Shown here piece after piece: positions 20,966 to 56,988 of a stretch of 64,000 nt of DNA. Origin of the DNA: Kofleriaceae bacterium (GTDB lineage: Bacteria; Myxococcota_A; Polyangia; Haliangiales; Haliangiaceae); contig JAWKQX010000006.1 in assembly GCA_041389925.1 (NCBI GenBank), forward strand, positions 471,837 to 535,836, read 5' to 3'. How positions within the stretch are numbered: the stretch's first letter is position 1; the number at the start of each line of letters is the position of its first letter. Under the pieces are notes generated by a model. That model made no database searches, was not told where the DNA came from, and was given only the letters and a program-made list of their open reading frames with translations. Position numbers and translations under genes: made by a program.

Positions 20966-22549
20966 ATGCTTTTATTGTACATCGCGCTGGGAATTGTCGT
21001 CGGAGTCCTCGTCGGCGTGTTCGTGGGGCGGACCATGGCCAGGGGCGCGCGAGGCGCGCTCACCCAGGAGCTGGCCGAGGCGGAGGCGACCAAGATCCGC
21101 AGCGCGGCCGCCGCGGAGATCGCGGCGCTGCGCCAGGCCGCCGAGGTCGATGGCAAGGAGGTCGCGCTGCGCCTCAAGAACGAGGCCGATGAGGAGCTGC
21201 GGGCGCGGCGCGCGGAGCTGACCAAGCGCGAGGAGGCCCTCACGCAGCGCGATCGCGAGCTCGAGCGCGGCCGGCGCGACGCGGAGCGCCGCGCGGCGGA
21301 CCTGGAGAAGAAGGAGCGCAGCGTCGACGGCAAGCTCAAGCAGGCGGACAGCGCGGTGGAGAAGGCCGAGAGCGCGCAGGCCGCCGCCAAGCAGAAGCTC
21401 GAGGAGATCGCCGGGCTGACCTCGGAGGAGGCGCGGCGGCGGCTCGAGGCGGAGGTGCGCGAGCAGGCCATGGCCGACGCGGCCGCGGACATCAAGAAGA
21501 TCCAGGAGGACGCGGAGAAGGAGGCGGCCGGGCGCGCCAAGACCATCGTCGCCACCGCCATCCAGCGCTACGCGAGCGAGTTTGTCCACGAGCGCACCGT
21601 CGCGGTGATCCCGCTGCCATCGGATGATCTCAAGGGGCGGCTGATCGGGCGCGAGGGCCGCAACATCCGCGCACTCGAGGCGGCCACCGGGATCGACCTC
21701 ATCATCGACGACACCTCCGAGGCGATCACCATCTCGTGCTTCAACCCGGTGCGCCGGGAGGTCGCGCGGCTGGCGATCTCCGCGCTCGTCGCCGACGGCC
21801 GCATCCATCCGACGCGCATCGAGGAGCTGGTGCGCAAGGCCGAGAAGGACGTCGACAAGGTCTGCAAGGAGGCGGGGGAGCGCGCGGTGTTCGATCTCGG
21901 ACTCCATCGCGTGCACCCGGAGCTGGTGAAGCTGCTCGGGCGGCTCAAGTTCCGCCAGTCCTACGCGCAGAACGTGCTCCTGCACTCCGTCGAGGTCGGC
22001 TACCTCGCGGGGCTGATGGCCAGCGAGCTGGGCGCCAACGTCAAGCTGGCGCGTCGCGCGGGGCTGCTCCACGACCTCGGCAAGGCGGTGGACCACGAGC
22101 AAGAGGGGCCGCACGGGGAGGTCGGCGCGGCGGTGGCGCGCAAGTACGGCGAGTCGCCCAAGGTGTGCCAGGCCATCGCGTCCCATCACGGCGATCAAGC
22201 CGACGTGGCCGATCCGGCGCCGACCGCGGTGCTCGATCACATCGTCGCCGCCGCCAACGCGCTGTCCGCGGCGCGCCCGGGCGCGCGGCGCGAGCAGCTG
22301 GCGTCGTACGTCAAGCGCCTCGAGGATCTGGAGGCCATCTGCAAGCGCCACGGCGGCGTGGAGCGCGTGTTCGCGCTGCAGGCCGGGCGCGAGGTCCGGG
22401 TGATGGTCATGAACGACCAGATCGATGACGCCAAGGCGCTGCTCCTGTCCCGGCAGATCGCACACACGATCGAGAACGAGGCGAGCTACCCCGGCCAGGT
22501 CAAGGTCGTCGTCGTTCGTGAGACGCGCGCCTCGGATTACGCGCGCTGA
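20966..22549 (+). CDS. rny: Ribonuclease Y (TM anchor, coiled coil, KH and HD domains)
   Basis: The N-terminal TM helix is followed by a long Glu/Arg/Ala coiled coil. A KH domain (LIGREGRNIRALEAATGIDLIIDD) and an HD domain (LLHDLGKAVDHE...ASHHGD) follow. Confidence 0.92.
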   Translation: MLLLYIALGIVVGVLVGVFVGRTMARGARGALTQELAEAEATKIRSAAAAEIAALRQAAEVDGKEVALRLKNEADEELRARRAELTKREEALTQRDRELERGRRDAERRAADLEKKERSVDGKLKQADSAVEKAESAQAAAKQKLEEIAGLTSEEARRRLEAEVREQAMADAAADIKKIQEDAEKEAAGRAKTIVATAIQRYASEFVHERTVAVIPLPSDDLKGRLIGREGRNIRALEAATGIDLIIDDTSEAITISCFNPVRREVARLAISALVADGRIHPTRIEELVRKAEKDVDKVCKEAGERAVFDLGLHRVHPELVKLLGRLKFRQSYAQNVLLHSVEVGYLAGLMASELGANVKLARRAGLLHDLGKAVDHEQEGPHGEVGAAVARKYGESPKVCQAIASHHGDQADVADPAPTAVLDHIVAAANALSAARPGARREQLASYVKRLEDLEAICKRHGGVERVFALQAGREVRVMVMNDQIDDAKALLLSRQIAHTIENEASYPGQVKVVVVRETRASDYAR

Positions 22550-49439: not shown

Positions 49440-51911
49440 CTAGCGCTCGCGCGTCGGCGCTTCTTCCTCGAGCCCCTCGAACGCCCGCGGGATCGGTGTG
49501 AGGATCGGCCGGAGTTCTCCCAGCGCCGGGGAGAACAGCGTGAGCTGATCCGGATCCGTGAAGATCTCGGCGAAGTCCTCAGGGCGCAGGCCCGCGGCGA
49601 GGCGCGAAGCGAACGTGGTGCGCAGCAGCCGCTCGTAGTACTCGATGTCGTAGTCGCGAGGGTCCTCGGCGGGGCCGCCCTCTGGCGCGGTCTCCCCGTC
49701 GGGGCGAGCGGGCGGACCGGGGAGCACCGCGGGTCGATCGTTCGCGGCGCGGTAGATCCGCACCACCGCGCCGCGCCGCCAGGTGGTGAGGCCGCTCTGG
49801 AGCATCGCCTCGTAGGAGGCCTCGCGCCGCTGTCCGCGCCCTCCCTGGTACTCCTCGGCGGTCTTGTTCAGCCGCACGCGGGCGGTGACGTCGAACGTGG
49901 GGAGCGCGCGTCGGCGCAGCGCCGCGATCGTCTCGAGATACGCCGCCTGCACGCCGGGCAGGTCCGCGCGGAGCAGCCGCGCGAGCGCTCGCCGGAGGAA
50001 GGCCTCTCCGAACGGCTCGGCGCGGCTGGAGCGAAACGCGACGCCGCGCAGGACGAGCTCGCCGTCGTAGCCCAGCAAGGCGTAGTTTTTCGGCTCGTGG
50101 GAGAGCATGGCGGCGTAGCGCCCGTCGAACTGGAGCTGGACCAAGGGCGGTAGGAGCGCGTCCACCTCCGCGACGACGCGTCGCTCGTCGGCCTCGGTCC
50201 AGGACTCCGGGACCGCGAAGTAGACGCCGTCGGTGTCGGCCTCGAGCAGGGTCGCGCCGCGCGCGGCGAGCTCGCGACAGAGCAGCGAGAGCACCAGCCG
50301 GCCTCGCCGCGTCACCTCGTTCGCGGCGTGCACATCGGAGAAGCGGGTGAGCGTGCCCGCCGCCAGGTAGCCGTACGCGGAGTTCACGACCAGCTTCATC
50401 GCCGCGGAGCTGGCCTCTTCCTGATGGCGCGCCGCGGAGCCCTCTTCGGATGCGCGCGCGCGCGCCTTCGCCGCGAGCCGACGCTCCACCAGGTCGTCCA
50501 CCAGCGCGAGCAGCGCGCCGAGATGATCTCGCGCTGGGCCGATCCGATAGGCGCGCATGAGCGAGGGATAGAGGCTCGCGACGTCGGCCTTGACCACTCG
50601 CGACGCGACCCCGGCGGCGAACAAGTGCAGCGCGGCTCCTTGGTGCGGGGTGCCGTCGCTCGGCTGGTGCGCCGGCAACGCCGTACCGGCGCGCAGGTAC
50701 GCGCGCACGAGCAGCGGCTCGAGGATGCCGGTCGCCGCGCCGGCGTCGCCGAGGCGCTCGTAGCGACGGGGCACGAGCTTGGCCAGCGCGAAGGCGGCAC
50801 CGCCGAGCGTGCGCGCGACCGCCGCGGCCTCCTCGACGTCGTCCCGCGCGTAGCGCCGGACCCGTTCGGGGTCGCGGCGGAAGACGGCGTGCACCTCGGC
50901 CCCGGGGACATACTCGCGGCTCGCGGTCGCCAGGCCGAGGTGGCGGGCCACCGCCTTGAGCCCGTGGCCCGGCAGCTCGCGGGTCGCGAAGTCGAAGCGG
51001 CGCACGGCGTCGAGGCTGTCGAGGAGCTCGCGCCCCGGCACGGTGTAGCGCGCGCGCCGGGGTCGCCAGGCGCGCCCGGCCGAGGCCGCCGCGGCGTCCG
51101 CGTCGTCGCCGGTGGAGGTCGACGCGGAGCCGTCCTCGAACGACGCGCCACGCGCGGCGGGGCGGAGCCGCGGCCCCGGACCTCCGCCGCGACCGAGCAC
51201 GAGCGGCACGCCGAGACGCTCGGCGCGCGCGACCAGAAACGGCAGATCGAACCCGTGCAGGTTGTGGTTCTCGATCACGTCGGGATCGCACGCCTGGATC
51301 GCCTGCGCGAAGGCGCGCAGGAGCCGCGCCTCCGCCTCGTCGGTGTCGCCGTCGGTCTCCAGGATCTGTACGCCGCCGCTTGGGTCGCGCACGGCGATGA
51401 GGAAGATCCGGCTGCGCTCCGGAGACAGCCCGGTGGTCTCCAGATCGAACTGCGCGCGGTGAACCTCGTCGTACGAGAGATCGCGGAAGTAGGTGCGGCC
51501 GGACGCGACCAGGTACTGTTCCTCGGGAGGCAGCGCGATCACTTCCTGATCTTCGACCTGCCGCAGCGAGGAGAGCTGCCGGCCCAGCCGTCGCCCGGCG
51601 CCGCGCAGCACCGCCTGCTCCAGCGCGCGTCCATCGCGCGCGCGCACCAGGTAGCGCAGCTCGCCCGGGCCCTCCAGGACCTGGTGGGTCACCGCGTCGT
51701 CGGCGACCACCGGCGCCTCGCGCACCAGCCGCTCGCCCAGGTGTGCGAGATCGTCGAGGGAAGAGAGCACGATCCACGGGCGAAAGCTGGCGCGCTCGCG
51801 CACCAGGTGCCCATCACAGCGGCGCCAGATCCACGCTCTGCCGTCAGGCTCCGCCCACACCGAGACGATGCCCGGGGTCGGATCCCATCCCCAGAGCCGC
51901 TCGTCTCGCAT
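49440..51911 (-). CDS. polB: Family B DNA polymerase (Pol II-like) with 3'-5' exonuclease domain
   Basis: Exo I FDLETTGL, motif A DVASLYPSLM, motif B KLVVNSAYGY, motif C LLEADTDGVYF. Start MRDERLW at 51911. The Ser/Pro-rich upstream extension in the track is antisense to the greA-like repeat region. Confidence 0.85.
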   Translation of the reverse strand: MRDERLWGWDPTPGIVSVWAEPDGRAWIWRRCDGHLVRERASFRPWIVLSSLDDLAHLGERLVREAPVVADDAVTHQVLEGPGELRYLVRARDGRALEQAVLRGAGRRLGRQLSSLRQVEDQEVIALPPEEQYLVASGRTYFRDLSYDEVHRAQFDLETTGLSPERSRIFLIAVRDPSGGVQILETDGDTDEAEARLLRAFAQAIQACDPDVIENHNLHGFDLPFLVARAERLGVPLVLGRGGGPGPRLRPAARGASFEDGSASTSTGDDADAAAASAGRAWRPRRARYTVPGRELLDSLDAVRRFDFATRELPGHGLKAVARHLGLATASREYVPGAEVHAVFRRDPERVRRYARDDVEEAAAVARTLGGAAFALAKLVPRRYERLGDAGAATGILEPLLVRAYLRAGTALPAHQPSDGTPHQGAALHLFAAGVASRVVKADVASLYPSLMRAYRIGPARDHLGALLALVDDLVERRLAAKARARASEEGSAARHQEEASSAAMKLVVNSAYGYLAAGTLTRFSDVHAANEVTRRGRLVLSLLCRELAARGATLLEADTDGVYFAVPESWTEADERRVVAEVDALLPPLVQLQFDGRYAAMLSHEPKNYALLGYDGELVLRGVAFRSSRAEPFGEAFLRRALARLLRADLPGVQAAYLETIAALRRRALPTFDVTARVRLNKTAEEYQGGRGQRREASYEAMLQSGLTTWRRGAVVRIYRAANDRPAVLPGPPARPDGETAPEGGPAEDPRDYDIEYYERLLRTTFASRLAAGLRPEDFAEIFTDPDQLTLFSPALGELRPILTPIPRAFEGLEEEAPTRER

Positions 51912-51958
51912 CGCCCGTACTGTATCCCGTTCGGGCGAACCGGCTATGCTACGTGCTG

Positions 51959-52777
51959 ATGGGTCCATCGAAACCGGTCGGCAAGAGGGCCAGGGCGACG
52001 GCCGGGGGGAAGGCGAAGCCTGCGGTCGGGGGGAAGGCGAAGCCCGTAGCTCGCGCGAAGGCGAAGGCGAAGCCTGCGGTCGGGGGGAAGGCGAAGCCCG
52101 TAGCTCGCGCGAAGGCGAAGGCGAAGCCTGCAGCCGGGGCGAAGGCGACGTCGGTCGCCGGGGCGAAGGCGAAGCCCACGGCCGGCGCGAAGGCGAAGCC
52201 CGCGGTCGGGGGGAAGGCGACGGCTGCGTCGACGAGACCGGCCGAGGCCGTGCCCGCGAGGCCTGCGGCACCGCACCCGGCGCGCGCGGCCGACCCGCCG
52301 ACCTCGTCGCGCAAGGCGGCGCTGCGGCTGGAGCTGCTGCGCGCGCTCGAGCACGCCCTGGAGATCGCCCGCCTCGCGCACCACGCCGCAGTGGAGGGCG
52401 CCACCCACGAAGACGCTCGAGCCGAGAACGACAAGGACACGCGCGGCCTGGAGCAGTCGTACCTGGCGCGCGGCCACGCGCGCCGGGTCGCGGAGCTGGA
52501 GGCGGGAGTCGCGGCGCTGGAGGCGATGGAGTGGCTCGCGCTCGAGCCCGACACGCCGATCTCGCTTGGCGCGCTCGTCTCCGTCGAGGAAGGCGACCAC
52601 CTCCGCACGGTGCTGCTCGCGGCGCACGGCGGGGGCCTGACGCTGGCGGGCGGCGTCACGGTGGTGACCCCAGGGTCTCCGATGGGGCGCGCGCTCCTGG
52701 GCCGCGTCGCGGGGGACGAGTGCGAGGTGCAGATCGGCGCGCAGCCCCACGACCTGACGATCCTCACCGTGGAGTAG
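51959..52777 (+). CDS. GreA/GreB-family transcription factor homolog with N-terminal Lys/Ala/Pro-rich histone-H1-like repeat tail
   Basis: Start MGPSKPV at 51959. About 95 aa of AKAKPAVGGKAKPVARAK repeats, then a coiled coil, then a GreA C-terminal FKBP-like block (SPMGRALLGRVAGDECEVQIGAQPHDLTILTVE). Confidence 0.7.
   Translation: MGPSKPVGKRARATAGGKAKPAVGGKAKPVARAKAKAKPAVGGKAKPVARAKAKAKPAAGAKATSVAGAKAKPTAGAKAKPAVGGKATAASTRPAEAVPARPAAPHPARAADPPTSSRKAALRLELLRALEHALEIARLAHHAAVEGATHEDARAENDKDTRGLEQSYLARGHARRVAELEAGVAALEAMEWLALEPDTPISLGALVSVEEGDHLRTVLLAAHGGGLTLAGGVTVVTPGSPMGRALLGRVAGDECEVQIGAQPHDLTILTVE
52000..52240. repeat. Tandem ~54-bp coding repeats (AKAKPAVGGKAKPVARAK units)
   Basis: Near-identical direct repeats, gaaggcgaagcctgcggtcggggggaaggcgaagcccgtagctcgcgcgaaggc, occur at least twice, plus degenerate copies. 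Confidence 0.8.
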
Positions 52778-52834: not shown

Positions 52835-53905
52835 TCACGGGGCGCGGCGCGCGATCAGCGCCCGCAGCGGCTCGAGCGTCGCCGCGGACAGCGGCCCTCT
52901 CGCCGCCGCCGCTGCGTTCGCTTGGAGGTGCGCGGCGCTGCTCGTGCCGATGACCGCGGTGGTGACCGCCGGCGCTGACAGCGCGAAGCGCACCGCGAGC
53001 TCGGCCACCGTCTCGCACTCTGGCTCGCGCTCACGCCGCTGGACTCGCTCGAGGATCTCGCGCGCGCCGTTGGACGACCGCGCCGCCGGCGGCGCGGACT
53101 TGGTGAACTCGCAGAGCTCGGCGACGCGCCGCGAGAGCTCCTCCAGGCCTTCCGGCGCTCCGAAGCGCAGGTGGCGCACGTCGTCGTGGCGAAACGTGGA
53201 GGTAGCCAGGATCTCCCCGGAGAGGCCGCCCTGACCCATCACCAACGACGCGAAGAACGCCAGCTCGCGCTCCGCCGCGGCCGCCGCGAGCCGCTCCGCC
53301 GCGAGGGACCACAGGCAGTGAGGCGCCGCGATCGCGGCGAACACCGGCTGATCGAGCGCGCGCTCCGCCGCGGTCGTCGCCAGCCCGGGCAGACATAGCC
53401 CCCAGCTCAGCACCTTGCCCTTGCGCCGCAGCGCCTCCATGATCCCGAGGAGCTCGGGCCACGCCGTCGACTCTAGCCAGCTATCGTGCCACGCCGTGAG
53501 CATCACCAGAGGGAGCACCTCGAGCTTCGTCGCTCGCAGCGAACGCTCCACGCGCTCTTCCACATAGGCCGGAGGGAACACGCGCGGTAGCGGATCCCGA
53601 AACGCCAGCCCCTCATCGTCCTTGAGCAGCTCAAGCGCCGTCGGCGCGGCGAGCGGCGGCGGCACCTTCGTCGTCAGCAGGACCCGCTCCCACGCCCGGA
53701 GCGCCCGGAGCGCCTCGCCGCAGATGTTCTCCGACTCGCCCCACCACGGCGCGGTGTCCACCACGTCGACGCCGAGATCGAGGGCGAGCCCGAGCGTGCG
53801 CTTGAGCTCGGCCGGCGACACGTCGGGACGGCGGTATGCTCCGGTCACCGCAACTCCGAGCCGCCCGACTTCACGTCGCAGCCGTCCGACGTGTCTTCGC
53901 TCCAT
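52835..53905 (-). CDS. Aldo/keto reductase family oxidoreductase
   Basis: AKR-like (beta/alpha)8 blocks (DTAPWWGESE, LGLCLPG). ATG confirmed at 53903-53905. Confidence 0.75.
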   Translation of the reverse strand: MERRHVGRLRREVGRLGVAVTGAYRRPDVSPAELKRTLGLALDLGVDVVDTAPWWGESENICGEALRALRAWERVLLTTKVPPPLAAPTALELLKDDEGLAFRDPLPRVFPPAYVEERVERSLRATKLEVLPLVMLTAWHDSWLESTAWPELLGIMEALRRKGKVLSWGLCLPGLATTAAERALDQPVFAAIAAPHCLWSLAAERLAAAAAERELAFFASLVMGQGGLSGEILATSTFRHDDVRHLRFGAPEGLEELSRRVAELCEFTKSAPPAARSSNGAREILERVQRREREPECETVAELAVRFALSAPAVTTAVIGTSSAAHLQANAAAAARGPLSAATLEPLRALIARRAP

Positions 53906-54109
53906 CCTGTACCGACATACCCCAGGGTGCGCCGTCGGGACAGGGCCCGGGCAGGCAATCCCTCGTCGATGGGGATCCTACCCCTGGGGCCAGGGGCCCC
54001 ACCTGGTGGGGGTGCCGTCCCGGCGGCGGAGCGAGGCCGGAGGATGGTGCGCTCAAGTATGGGAAGTAGCGGCCACGACAGTGGATCCCTCCTTGCATCC
54101 AGTCGGCGC

Positions 54110-54847
54110 ATGAAGTCTAGCTTGGCTCTCACCCTGATCATCCTCGCCGCGCCGATCTCCGCCTCCGCGCACATCCACATGATCAAGCCGACCCCTCGGG
54201 TCGACTCCATCGGCGGCGACGCCAACGCGCAGAAGAGCAAGTACTGCGGCTCGCCGGGCTACTCGCGCGCCGCGCACCCCGAGCGCGTGACGCAGTTCAA
54301 GCCGGGCGCCACCATCCGCGTCATGTGGGAAGAGACGATCTCTCATCCCGGCTGGTACCGGATCTCGTTTCAGCCCAACGGCGAGGCGTTCACGGTGCCG
54401 CCGCCCGTAGGCAACGGCGGCTTCCCGACCGCGGACGAGACCGGCGTCACTGACCCGGCGACCGGCTCGACGATCCTCCTCGACCGGATCACCGACGGCG
54501 TGCCGGGGGCGATGCAGATGGCCGACATCACCCTGCCCAATATCGAGTGCGACAATTGCACTTTGCAGTTCACGCAGTTCATGACGGATAAGGCTCCCTA
54601 CACGAACGACGCGTTGAGCGACGATATCTACTTCAACTGCGCCGATCTCACGCTGAGCAACACCGCGCCTGATCCTGCTCCCGATGCCGGTCCCGTCGAC
54701 GCTGGCCCCGACGCGGGCAACCCGGCGCAGGACGACGGCACGCTCCGCGGCGGCTGCAGCGCGGGTGGCTCCACGGCGCTCGGCGGTTTCGCGGCGTTCG
54801 CGTTGCTCGGCCTCGTCGGGTTCTTGCGTCGGCGAGCGACGCGCTAG
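54110..54847 (+). CDS. Secreted protein with MYXO-CTERM-type C-terminal sorting tail; His-rich mature N-terminus (possible metal site)
   Basis: Signal peptide MKSSLALTLIILAAPISASA, then HIHMIKP. The C-terminus GGCSAGGSTALGGFAAFALLGLVGFLRRRATR fits Cys-TM-basic MYXO-CTERM. An alternative start is at 54044. Confidence 0.6.
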   Translation: MKSSLALTLIILAAPISASAHIHMIKPTPRVDSIGGDANAQKSKYCGSPGYSRAAHPERVTQFKPGATIRVMWEETISHPGWYRISFQPNGEAFTVPPPVGNGGFPTADETGVTDPATGSTILLDRITDGVPGAMQMADITLPNIECDNCTLQFTQFMTDKAPYTNDALSDDIYFNCADLTLSNTAPDPAPDAGPVDAGPDAGNPAQDDGTLRGGCSAGGSTALGGFAAFALLGLVGFLRRRATR

Positions 54848-55351
54848 GGCGCTCGCGATCTCGTCGCGTGAGACCACGCGGGCTCTTGGAGCGCCCGCCG
54901 CGGCGACGATGTAGGCGTTGCCCAGCGACGTGAGCGTTCGCCCTCAGCGACTCAAACTACCGCTGATGTGATCTGGAGAAGTGACGCGCGCGATGTGAGC
55001 GTTGTGCGCGAGTTCTCGACGACGCTCGCGCGCCTTTGTGTCGGCGGATGTGCGCGCGCGCGGCATGGTTCACGACGGTACGGCCGTTGTGTGCATCAAG
55101 CGAAGTTTATTCGAGATTCTCGTAAGAGGAGTGTTGCGGTGGTAGGTGTCTTCTGCGAGTCTTGCGGTACCAAATTGGGTCGTTGTGAAGAGCCGTAGAA
55201 CCTATCCCTTCTGCGTCGCTGTTCGTCGGGGCGGGCGTTCCGAGGAGCAGAGGCACCTTTGCGTCGGGCACGCCGCCGCGCTCGAGGGTAGCGCGGCGAG
55301 AGTTCAGGTCTTCACGAGCGCGGGGTGGCACCACAACGTTCTGGCGAGGGC

Positions 55352-56188
55352 ATGATGGAAGGAGATTTGAGTCTGTTGTCGATTCCTGATCTGCTTCAGA
55401 TGATCTGTCTGGGTGGATATAGTCGAGACATCCATCTCTTCGATGGCCAGACTCAACTCGGCGTGATCGCGATTCGCAACGGCCGCGTGGATCGATGCTT
55501 CGGCTACGGCACCTGGGGCGAGGGCGCGTTCTTCAAGCTCGTGACGCTCCGACGGGGTCGCTACAAGGTCAACGATGCGCAGGACATGTCGGCCTCCGAC
55601 GCGACGCTCACGGCGTACTCCTGGCAAGAGCTCCTCATGGAGGCGGCCCGCCAGCAAGACGAGGCCGCCCGGGTCGCGCAGGTGTCCGCGGCGAACGCGG
55701 GGCGCGTCATCCCCTTTCCGACGCCGACGTCGCACGGTGGCGGCGGTGGCGCCGAGGTGATGCGGAGCGACACCGGCTCCCTCTCGATGCGCGACGCCTC
55801 GTCCGGCTCCGCGGAGACGCACTTCGATTTCCCCGCGATCTTCGATGCGCCGGGTCCGACGTCGACCTCGAGCAGTGTGGCGCCGACGGTGATCGCGCGC
55901 AGCGACTCACCTCGACCCGCGTCCGACACCGCGCGTCAGATCCCGATCATCGCCGCGGTGGCGACGGCGCAGCCGATCGCGCTGGCGGCGCAGCCCGCGC
56001 CGCAGCCCGAGCCAGTCGACCGCGGCTCGGAGGACGTGACGAACCTCTTGCAGGAAGCGACGGCCTGCTATCTGCGCAGAGACCTGGACCGCGCGGAGTC
56101 GTTGCTCCTTCGGTGCCTTGAGCTCCGACCTGGAGACCGGCGAGCGACCCAGAACCTGGATCGAATCCGACGAAAGAAGTCCCCATGA
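55352..56188 (+). CDS. PATAN/DUF4388-domain protein with C-terminal TPR-like helix
   Basis: GDLSLLSIPDLLQMICLGGYSRDIHLFDGQTQLGVIAIRNGRVDRCFGYGTWGEGAFFKLVTLRRGRYKV matches the DUF4388 consensus. It is the first gene of the coupled operon. Confidence 0.7.
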   Translation: MMEGDLSLLSIPDLLQMICLGGYSRDIHLFDGQTQLGVIAIRNGRVDRCFGYGTWGEGAFFKLVTLRRGRYKVNDAQDMSASDATLTAYSWQELLMEAARQQDEAARVAQVSAANAGRVIPFPTPTSHGGGGGAEVMRSDTGSLSMRDASSGSAETHFDFPAIFDAPGPTSTSSSVAPTVIARSDSPRPASDTARQIPIIAAVATAQPIALAAQPAPQPEPVDRGSEDVTNLLQEATACYLRRDLDRAESLLLRCLELRPGDRRATQNLDRIRRKKSP

Positions 56189-56988
56189 TCTCGCTCGCGA
56201 TCGTGAGTCCGAAGGGTGGTGTCGGCAAGACCACCCTCTGCTTGAACCTCGCGTACGCCTTCGCGCAGCTCGGCAAGAAGACGCTGCTCATCGACACCGA
56301 TCCGCAAGGCGGCATCGGGCACTCCCTGATGGGCAAGACCAAGGACGCGATCGGCCTGGTGGACCTCCTCGAGGGTGAGCCCGCGAGTCGCGTGGTGATC
56401 CAGACCCGCAATCGCAACCTTTCGATCCTCCCGGTGGGACAGCCCCCGTGGGAGCGGCTGTCCGAGTGGTCCGCGGACATGGCGCGCCCTGGGTTCCTCG
56501 CCGCTCACCTGGAGTCGCTGGAAGGCGAGCACGACCTCGCGATCATCGACACCCCCGCCGGGCTCTCTGGGCCGACCTACGGGGTCATGGCCTACGCCAG
56601 TGATCTCCTGTCGCCGATCCAGACCGAGCCGTTGGCGATCCGCGTCGTCGGGCAGCTCATGGAGGTGCTGGGCCACCTGAAAGCGCAAGGCGCGCGCGCG
56701 AACCTGTGCGGCGTCGTGCTCACCATGGCGAGGATGCGCGACGAGACCTCGCTGTCGATCTCGCAGGAGGCGTGGTCGCTGTTTCCCGAGCGCATGGTGC
56801 TCGACACCGTCGTGCCGCGGGACTCCGAGCTGCTGAAGGCCAGCGCGCAGGGGGTGCCGGTCGGGCTCCTGCGCAAGCGTCCTCCACCCGTCACCGCCGT
56901 GTTCGATCGGATCGCCGCGGAGCTGGAACCTCGTCTTGGAATGACGGAGATCAACGATGACGAACAGCCGATCCCTCTCTTGGATTGA
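56185..56988 (+). CDS. MinD/ParA-family (SIMIBI) P-loop ATPase
   Basis: Deviant Walker A SPKGGVGKTT, Walker A' IDTDPQG, Walker B LAIIDTPAG. ATGA overlap with the upstream gene. Confidence 0.85.
   Translation: MISLAIVSPKGGVGKTTLCLNLAYAFAQLGKKTLLIDTDPQGGIGHSLMGKTKDAIGLVDLLEGEPASRVVIQTRNRNLSILPVGQPPWERLSEWSADMARPGFLAAHLESLEGEHDLAIIDTPAGLSGPTYGVMAYASDLLSPIQTEPLAIRVVGQLMEVLGHLKAQGARANLCGVVLTMARMRDETSLSISQEAWSLFPERMVLDTVVPRDSELLKASAQGVPVGLLRKRPPPVTAVFDRIAAELEPRLGMTEINDDEQPIPLLD

Follow-up and report, generated by a model that had tools for sequence, protein, structure and literature searches.

Usually, a Gre-family factor is a bare protein of 160 residues that reaches RNA polymerase (RNAP) by diffusion and competes for one site. 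H1-like proteins rich in Lys, Ala, and Pro (K/A/P-rich) are also found in bacteria; AlgP of Pseudomonas, Hc1, and the C-terminal tail of HupB are examples. The two themes meet in CarD of Anaeromyxobacter dehalogenans and Vulgatibacter incomptus, which combines an RNAP-binding domain with a K/A/P-rich, H1-like DNA-binding region (PMC9304148). Here we describe a Gre-like gene in a 64,000-nucleotide stretch of DNA from a Kofleriaceae bacterium (contig JAWKQX010000006.1, positions 471,837 to 535,836; G+C content, 69.7%), referred to below as the window. The gene stands head-to-head with a gene for a family-B DNA polymerase (polB), and its reading frame begins with a K/A/P-rich segment. On balance, we favor a picture in which the product is a Gre-family RNAP factor with a disordered, polycationic N-terminal tail, tethered to nucleic acid and coregulated with polB. 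Our literature searches returned nothing relevant on Gre factors extended by an H1-like or lysine-rich segment; among the papers found, a Gre paralogue bearing an H1-like tail is thus undescribed.

The long form of the gene (51959..52777, plus strand) encodes 272 amino acids and a stop codon, as judged from the open reading frame (ORF) and its translation, the alignment of its start with orthologue starts, Pfam and NCBIfam matches, and a fold match. From the N to the C terminus the protein consists of a basic tail, an Ala/Pro-rich (A/P) linker, a coiled-coil N-terminal domain, and a globular C-terminal domain. A preliminary reading made from the letters and translations (the sequence-only reading) had placed the gene start at 51911; in plus-strand numbering, this is where the polB ATG on the minus strand has its first base, and the supported start is the ATG at 51959. 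The same reading had put the two start codons about 47 bp apart, and the spacer indeed measures exactly 47 bp (51912-51958). In the public annotation the tail is left out: a protein from a Kofleriaceae bacterium metagenome-assembled genome (MAG) (P0001; NCBI “GreA/GreB family elongation factor,” 175 aa, 99% identical) begins at the GTG at 52250 (MPARPAAPH...). The long form of the window protein is absent from a collection of 5.8 billion clusters.

The core of the protein, residues 115-272, has a complete two-domain Gre fold of the GreA/GreB/Gfh1 type, colinear with Escherichia coli GreA. In an AlphaFold2 (AF2) model built with 27 homologues, helices occupy residues 115-149, 151-159, and 162-189 (predicted local distance difference test score [pLDDT], 80-98), beta strands are found at residues 206-271 of the C-terminal domain (pLDDT >90), and the pLDDT of the core is mostly >90. 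The coiled-coil stretch (residues 115-189; 52301..52525, plus strand) is delimited by these helices, by full-length Foldseek alignments, and by a hidden Markov model (HMM) alignment to the GreA structure 1grj, and the globular domain (residues 190-272; 52526..52774, plus strand) is delimited by PF01272, AF2, and Foldseek. A Foldseek search of the PDB returned Gfh1 (3aoi_X, 5.4e-8), a GreA model (9a7t_B, 3.9e-7), GreB (2p4v_A, 5e-6), and GreA (1grj, 5.5e-4), each over 152-165 columns; the Foldseek probability was 1.00. At the profile level, 32 tail-less family members matched 1grj (E 3.3e-6) and Gfh1 (1e-5), and tblastn with an E. coli GreA query retrieved family members at 1e-5. The GreA_GreB C-terminal domain PF01272 matches residues 235-272 (E 6.8e-6, 26.4 bits), most homologues carry a precomputed match to it, and the greA model TIGR01462 aligns with residues 174-272. 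The sequence-only reading, which had identified the C-terminal block as a GreA/GreB domain preceded by a coiled coil, thus agrees with Pfam, TIGR01462, the profile, Foldseek, and the AF2 helices.

Some results weigh against the Gre assignment. The PF01272 score of this single sequence falls 0.5 bit short of the gathering score of 26.9, and the Pfam N-terminal Gre domain, PF03449, gave no match at E <= 1. A tblastn search detected no canonical greA in the 88 loci and the window, a result that is uninformative for whole genomes. The window protein is below the canonical GreA/GreB equivalog cutoffs by a wide margin (TIGR01462, 26.4 bits versus 139; NF001261, 21.8 versus 167; GreB NF002506, 12.3 versus 188).

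Compared with E. coli GreA and GreB (1grj, 2p4v), the window protein has the same two-domain architecture and a core of similar length (~158 aa), and it conserves the C-terminal motif SP.GRALLG...D.. together with GreA residues E44 and N45. Since the profile alignment to 1grj is gap-free along the coiled coil, the window residue number equals the GreA number plus 112 throughout. Unlike GreA and GreB, to which it is ~20% identical, it carries a 117-residue N-terminal extension comprising the basic tail and the A/P linker, and its family has Ala in place of D41 and an invariant motif, ENDKDTRGLEQSYLARG, of its own. Gfh1, an anticleavage Gre homologue of Thermus (2etn, 2f23, 3aoi), is the best match to the window protein both in Foldseek and in single-sequence comparison with the PDB. 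Both are Gre paralogues with an altered acidic tip, and Gfh1 sits in the secondary channel of RNAP. However, Gfh1 is tail-less and has a different tip sequence, and inhibition is known for Gfh1, whereas the window protein is likened to it by sequence and fold only. Rnk-type short Gre homologues (3bmb, 2pn0) share the Gre C-terminal domain, but they align over just ~98 Foldseek columns because their coiled coil is short, while that of the window protein is full length.

The tail proper (residues 1-95; 51959..52243, plus strand) is set apart by composition, pLDDT, G+C content by codon position, and Lys content. It consists of 33% Ala, 21% Lys, 14% Gly, 11% Pro, and 5% Arg, with a net charge of +25 and a pI of 12, and it is predicted to be disordered, with no secondary structure and an AF2 pLDDT of about 46-63. 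These values, computed for residues 1-95, agree with the K/A/P-rich tail of ~95 residues proposed in the sequence-only reading. The tail is followed by an uncharged Ala/Pro-rich linker, recognized by composition (residues 96-117; 52244..52309, plus strand), which includes GTG 52250; the remaining 155 residues (118-272) are acidic, with a pI of 5.2. In six frames of the window, the tail is the sole Lys/Ala-rich stretch besides a short coiled-coil-like segment at 21272-21391. Compared with orthologue tails, it has more Gly and less Pro.

The likeness of the tail to those of H1, AlgP, and CarD, noted in the sequence-only reading, holds for composition; demonstrable homology does not follow, as a Pfam search with four tails at E <= 10 found nothing meaningful. 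With AlgP and similar H1-like proteins the tail shares low-complexity repeats of the AKP type, an extreme pI, predicted disorder, and repeat-driven length variation, but those proteins belong to the nucleoid or to polyphosphate (polyP) granules, have no Gre domain, and show no detectable homology to the window tail. CarD comes from the same phylum and follows the same design, an RNAP-binding module joined to a polycationic K/A/P region (PMC9304148). In contrast to the window protein, its RNAP-binding module is of the unrelated CarD_CdnL_TRCF type, which binds the beta subunit, and its tail is C-terminal. CarD is also confined to Cystobacterineae (PMC9304148), whereas the window protein is from Kofleriaceae, and the likeness of the two tails is compositional only. 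Secretion and a TolA/TonB-like spacer were considered as readings of the tail and rejected, as the N terminus shows neither a hydrophobic segment nor a signal peptide and the core has a cytoplasmic fold.

Underlying the tail is a degenerate tandem array (51999..52220, plus strand), in which 24- and 30-nt subunits form a 54-nt superunit, as found by Tandem Repeats Finder (TRF), a repeat search, and an exact 69-nt repeat. TRF reports periods of 24, 30, 54, and 78, the 54-nt period having 3.7 copies with 86% matches. Two units, 52009-52062 and 52063-52116, are 100% identical, with an exact match of 69 nt at an offset of 54. The third unit is 81% identical and the remaining ones are degenerate, so that the near-identity claimed for the whole array in the sequence-only reading applies to two units and reflects one recent duplication within an older array. 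Slippage of such repeats in frame would lengthen and shorten the tail; variation in copy number and length was seen only in a sister lineage, between loci L002 and L085 (see below).

The core family comprises >1000 clusters at 90% identity, with 274 representatives at 50% identity (E <= 1e-30). Among species-representative genomes it is found almost exclusively in Kofleriaceae, Haliangiales, and other MAGs of Myxococcota, some of which have two copies. Members are typically 152-165 aa long and share the invariant motif EGATH..AR.ENDKDTRGLEQSYLARG. In a neighbor-joining tree of the cores, built without bootstrap, the polB-linked, tail-bearing proteins form one clade. Every protein encoded head-to-head with polB has a basic N terminus of 16-233 aa, and these N termini are alike in composition and mutually non-alignable. 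Their lengths are 156 aa in L001 (P0072), 60 aa in L069, 51 aa in L026 and L086, and 16 aa in L016, while the tails of L002, L085, L088, and L084 reach 202-233 aa, with 15-22% Lys and a net charge of +29 to +39; in the subclade of the window, K/A/P-rich tails span 95-233 residues. The gene order OmpA family, TonB-dependent receptor, polB (minus strand), gre-like gene (plus strand), and aldo-keto reductase (minus strand) is common to the window, L001, L002, L084, L085, and L086/L087. Judged by this synteny, the locus is an orthologous chromosomal one and not a mobile element.

In the sister lineage (P0121-P0125; L084, 1126-2307; L085, 4227-5315; L088), the basic tail is followed by SSQL(T/A)L(A/P)L and then by a Ser/Asp/Glu-rich acidic patch (e.g., DDSDSSDEAESSDEESE) ahead of the Gre core. 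This basic-plus-acidic layout recalls an HMGA/CarD-type organization; the window protein is without both features. Two loci branching beside the tailed clade, L049 (~3960-4020) and L068 (~3990-4050), encode short basic N termini (MTKSTSTPKVKRSK... and MKKARPSASKK...), and no polB was detected upstream of their gre-like genes within the fetched locus DNA. The basic N terminus may therefore predate the linkage to polB or the expansion of the repeats. Most other representatives with long N termini owe them to miscalled starts, and their composition is ordinary. P0196, a distant member of 236 aa, differs in having N-terminal (KKPVEKKAVE)n repeats of mixed Lys and Glu, which suggests that repeat tails may have been acquired independently within the family.

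The control region between the polB and gre ATGs (51912..51958) was defined from the sequence and an alignment of 10 orthologous spacers, which are 47-49 bp long. Two blocks are invariant in the alignment, CACTGTA.C..G and C.G.TAT..T, and both fit TAnnnT. The first contains ACTGTA (51919..51924, minus strand), which reads TACAGT on the polB strand, has all six bases invariant in the 10 loci, and forms a −10-like element 7 nt from the polB ATG; of the 10 aligned loci, 7 keep this distance (8 of 11 if L003, a near-duplicate of L002, is included). The second contains the −10-like TATGCT (51945..51950, plus strand), which precedes ATG 51959 by 8 nt and is invariant at TAT..T. The ATG within GGCTATGCT shares the reading frame in some loci but not in the window or L001, and the TATGCT block is thus conserved as DNA and not as codons. 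Neither the gre nor the polB start codon is preceded by a Shine-Dalgarno sequence. The composite spacer motif is confined to polB-gre loci, and the window holds no other copy of it at up to 1 mismatch. The sequence-only reading had proposed shared promoter space for the two genes, and the 47-bp spacer does carry conserved promoter-like elements. Telling against a promoter function, a sigma-70 consensus scan found neither a promoter nor a terminator; neither box has a recognizable −35 element, which accounts for the negative scan, so that conservation and spacing have to carry the promoter and leaderless reading. The spacer also contains TACTGTAT, which in E. coli forms the left half-site of the SOS box. 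A canonical LexA/SOS site was rejected as a candidate: the right half (ACAG) is absent in 10 of 10 loci, and GTTCAG, required in a LexA box of the Myxococcus xanthus type, is not conserved.

The protein is very probably made as a translated fusion of tail and Gre core. The chief alternative is that the public annotation is right, the gene encoding a tail-less factor of 175 aa (or ~155 aa) and the repeats being an untranslated leader or an intergenic array that is open by chance. In its favor are the NCBI pipeline's choice of the short form, starting at GTG 52250, the tail-less length of most family members, and the frequency of long chance ORFs at 70% G+C. G+C by codon position is 0.67/0.70/0.87 in the tail and 0.84/0.47/0.94 in the core, and one antisense frame over the tail has an equally high value at the third position (GC3, 0.865), which likewise speaks for the short form. 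However, the three-base periodicity and the Lys enrichment recur in unrelated orthologue tails: in-frame GC3 is 0.88-0.94 in the non-alignable tails of L001, L002, L084, L085, and L088. Lys makes up 21% of the window tail versus 0.8-2.6% of polB, the aldo-keto reductase, and the TonB receptor, where Arg is used instead; the enrichment runs counter to the mutational bias of this genome of 70% G+C. L002 and L085, with 95% identical cores and 87% identical tails, differ in the tail by five indels (3, 6, 33, 27, and 9 nt), all of them in frame, and by 20 residues in length, although in-frame indels are expected even without selection where repeat units are multiples of 3. The start codon of the long form is aligned across 10 loci and directly follows the conserved −10-like box, 7-10 nt downstream of the invariant TAT..T, and the N-terminal motif MTK.K..RK is kept in the sister lineage. 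GTG 52250, in contrast, has no Shine-Dalgarno sequence at a useful spacing (GAGG is 2 nt away). In the tail-coding region, neither an excess of RNA structure (z = +0.55) nor an Rfam match was found, and a structured leader RNA was rejected; the tail-bearing proteins are monophyletic, and other pipelines call long forms of 311-393 aa (P0072, P0121-P0125). Taken together, these observations make the short form very unlikely.

What the core does in the secondary channel, and what the tail binds, are less settled than the fusion itself. At and after the coiled-coil tip lies a family signature, EGATHEDARAENDKDTRGLEQSYLARG (residues 146-172; 52394..52474, plus strand), recognized from invariant columns and the alignment to 1grj. 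In this alignment E44 and N45 of GreA correspond to the invariant E156 and N157, while D41 corresponds to Ala153, a position that is Ala in at least 90% of family members. Both D41 and E44 of GreA act on the catalytic Mg2+ and are credited with activating cleavage, and D41 is required (PMC7527559). The Ala speaks against a GreA-like activity; with just one of the two catalytic acids of GreA kept, we regard stimulation of cleavage and Gfh1-like occupation of the channel as about equally probable. The label “GreA-like” given in the sequence-only reading thus fits the fold and the probable binding site, and it does not extend to cleavage activity. That the core is a non-cleaving regulator or inhibitor of the secondary channel, acting like Gfh1 or DksA, has in our estimate slightly less than an even chance: the nearly invariant Ala, the place of Gfh1 among the best fold and sequence matches, the family's own tip motif ENDKDTRGLEQSYLARG, unlike that of GreA, and the low TIGR01462 score would all fit. 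On the other side, E44/N45 are invariant, and acids around the tip (E151, D152, which is D or E in the family, D158, and D160) could substitute for D41; moreover, confidence within the AF2 core model is lowest at the tip, where a one-residue shift in register is conceivable. As for the tail, tethering to DNA is in our judgment an even bet. It is fairly unlikely, though clearly less so than the short form, that the tail is translated and has another ligand: polyP, a condensate or granule with which it associates as AlgP does, or RNA. In the RNA version, long backtracked 3' ends would be extruded via the secondary channel, and the tail would be an enlarged counterpart of the basic patch of GreB. 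Polycationic K/A/P tails bind any polyanion, AlgP offers a precedent for polyP granules (PMC9239181), and colinearity with GreA would have the tail emerge at the mouth of the channel; yet the sequence does not discriminate among polyanions, no ppk or polyP genes were noticed beside the locus, and DNA is the ligand of the H1-like domain of CarD, which is functionally the nearest precedent in the phylum (PMC9304148).

Under the DNA-tethering reading, the coiled coil would enter the secondary channel and the globular domain would dock on the beta-prime rim helices, as is the case for GreA, to which we appeal by homology. Because the N terminus of the coiled coil sits at the channel mouth, the tail would leave the protein there and could bind DNA (or RNA, either nascent or extruded) irrespective of sequence, with downstream DNA within reach. 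The tail would thereby enrich the factor locally on the nucleoid or on elongation complexes and help it against competing secondary-channel factors. Each gene would be read from its own −10 box, the two boxes lying back-to-back, to give a leaderless or nearly leaderless mRNA, and the overlap of the two promoters is the ground for proposing that the gre-like gene and polB are coregulated. The pairing with polB suggests, speculatively, that the two genes are expressed together and act at the interface of transcription with DNA repair or replication. We consider it rather improbable that the tailed factor and polB form a dedicated two-gene module with one bidirectional leaderless promoter, in which a nucleoid-tethered factor would clear or restrain RNAP at sites of repair or restart synthesis. 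If true, such a module would hard-wire a secondary-channel factor to one specific DNA polymerase, an arrangement that is not known to have been reported. The locus hints that transcription rescue and DNA repair synthesis may be connected, and the tailed lineage offers a natural test of how tethering affects competition at the secondary channel.

The partner gene, polB (49440..51911, minus strand), encodes 823 aa and is identified by matches to Pfam DNA_pol_B, DNA_pol_B_exo1, and RNase_H_2 and by a GC3 of 0.90. The polymerase is divergent: its DNA_pol_B and exonuclease matches reach just 33-39 bits, and the best NCBIfam match, to DNA polymerase II, scores 83 bits versus a cutoff of 570. Antisense to the tail, a minus-strand ORF (49440-52271) adds 120 Ser/Pro/Arg-rich residues upstream of polB (51912..52271, minus strand). 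The sequence-only reading had called this extension spurious, and rightly so: its GC3 is 0.675, versus 0.90 in polB proper, and the N termini of orthologous polB proteins map to 51911. The locus is thus a reproducible annotation trap, in which gene callers either truncate the Gre-like gene or extend polB. Truncated Gre-like calls have 175 aa (NCBI), 189 aa (P0002), and 255 aa (P0004). In L002 the polB call (2952-5996) is extended to 1014 aa through the antisense of the tail and the Gre-like call (6001-6768) is cut to 255 aa; in L088 the corresponding calls are 1217-4423 (1068 aa) and 4428-4997 (189 aa). From the conserved ATG, the Gre-like ORFs have 377 aa in L002 and 358 aa in L088.

Across the whole 64 kb, searches for tRNA genes and for Rfam families at gathering score came back empty. 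Downstream of the Gre-like gene lies a convergent aldo-keto reductase gene (52835..53905, minus strand; PF00248, E 1.6e-27), a neighbor also present in L084, L085, and L087. It is followed by a plus-strand gene (53891-54847) for a polysaccharide-monooxygenase-like protein of the SCE4755 family (NF043005, E 2e-32), the C terminus of which gives a weak match to the MYXO-CTERM sorting domain (TIGR03901, 18.8 bits versus a cutoff of 20), as would fit an origin in Myxococcota. Farther downstream lies a plus-strand gene (55325-56988) for a DUF4388 protein whose middle region is of low complexity and rich in Pro and Ala; the gene overlaps that of a ParA/MinD-like ATPase (AAA_31/CbiA).

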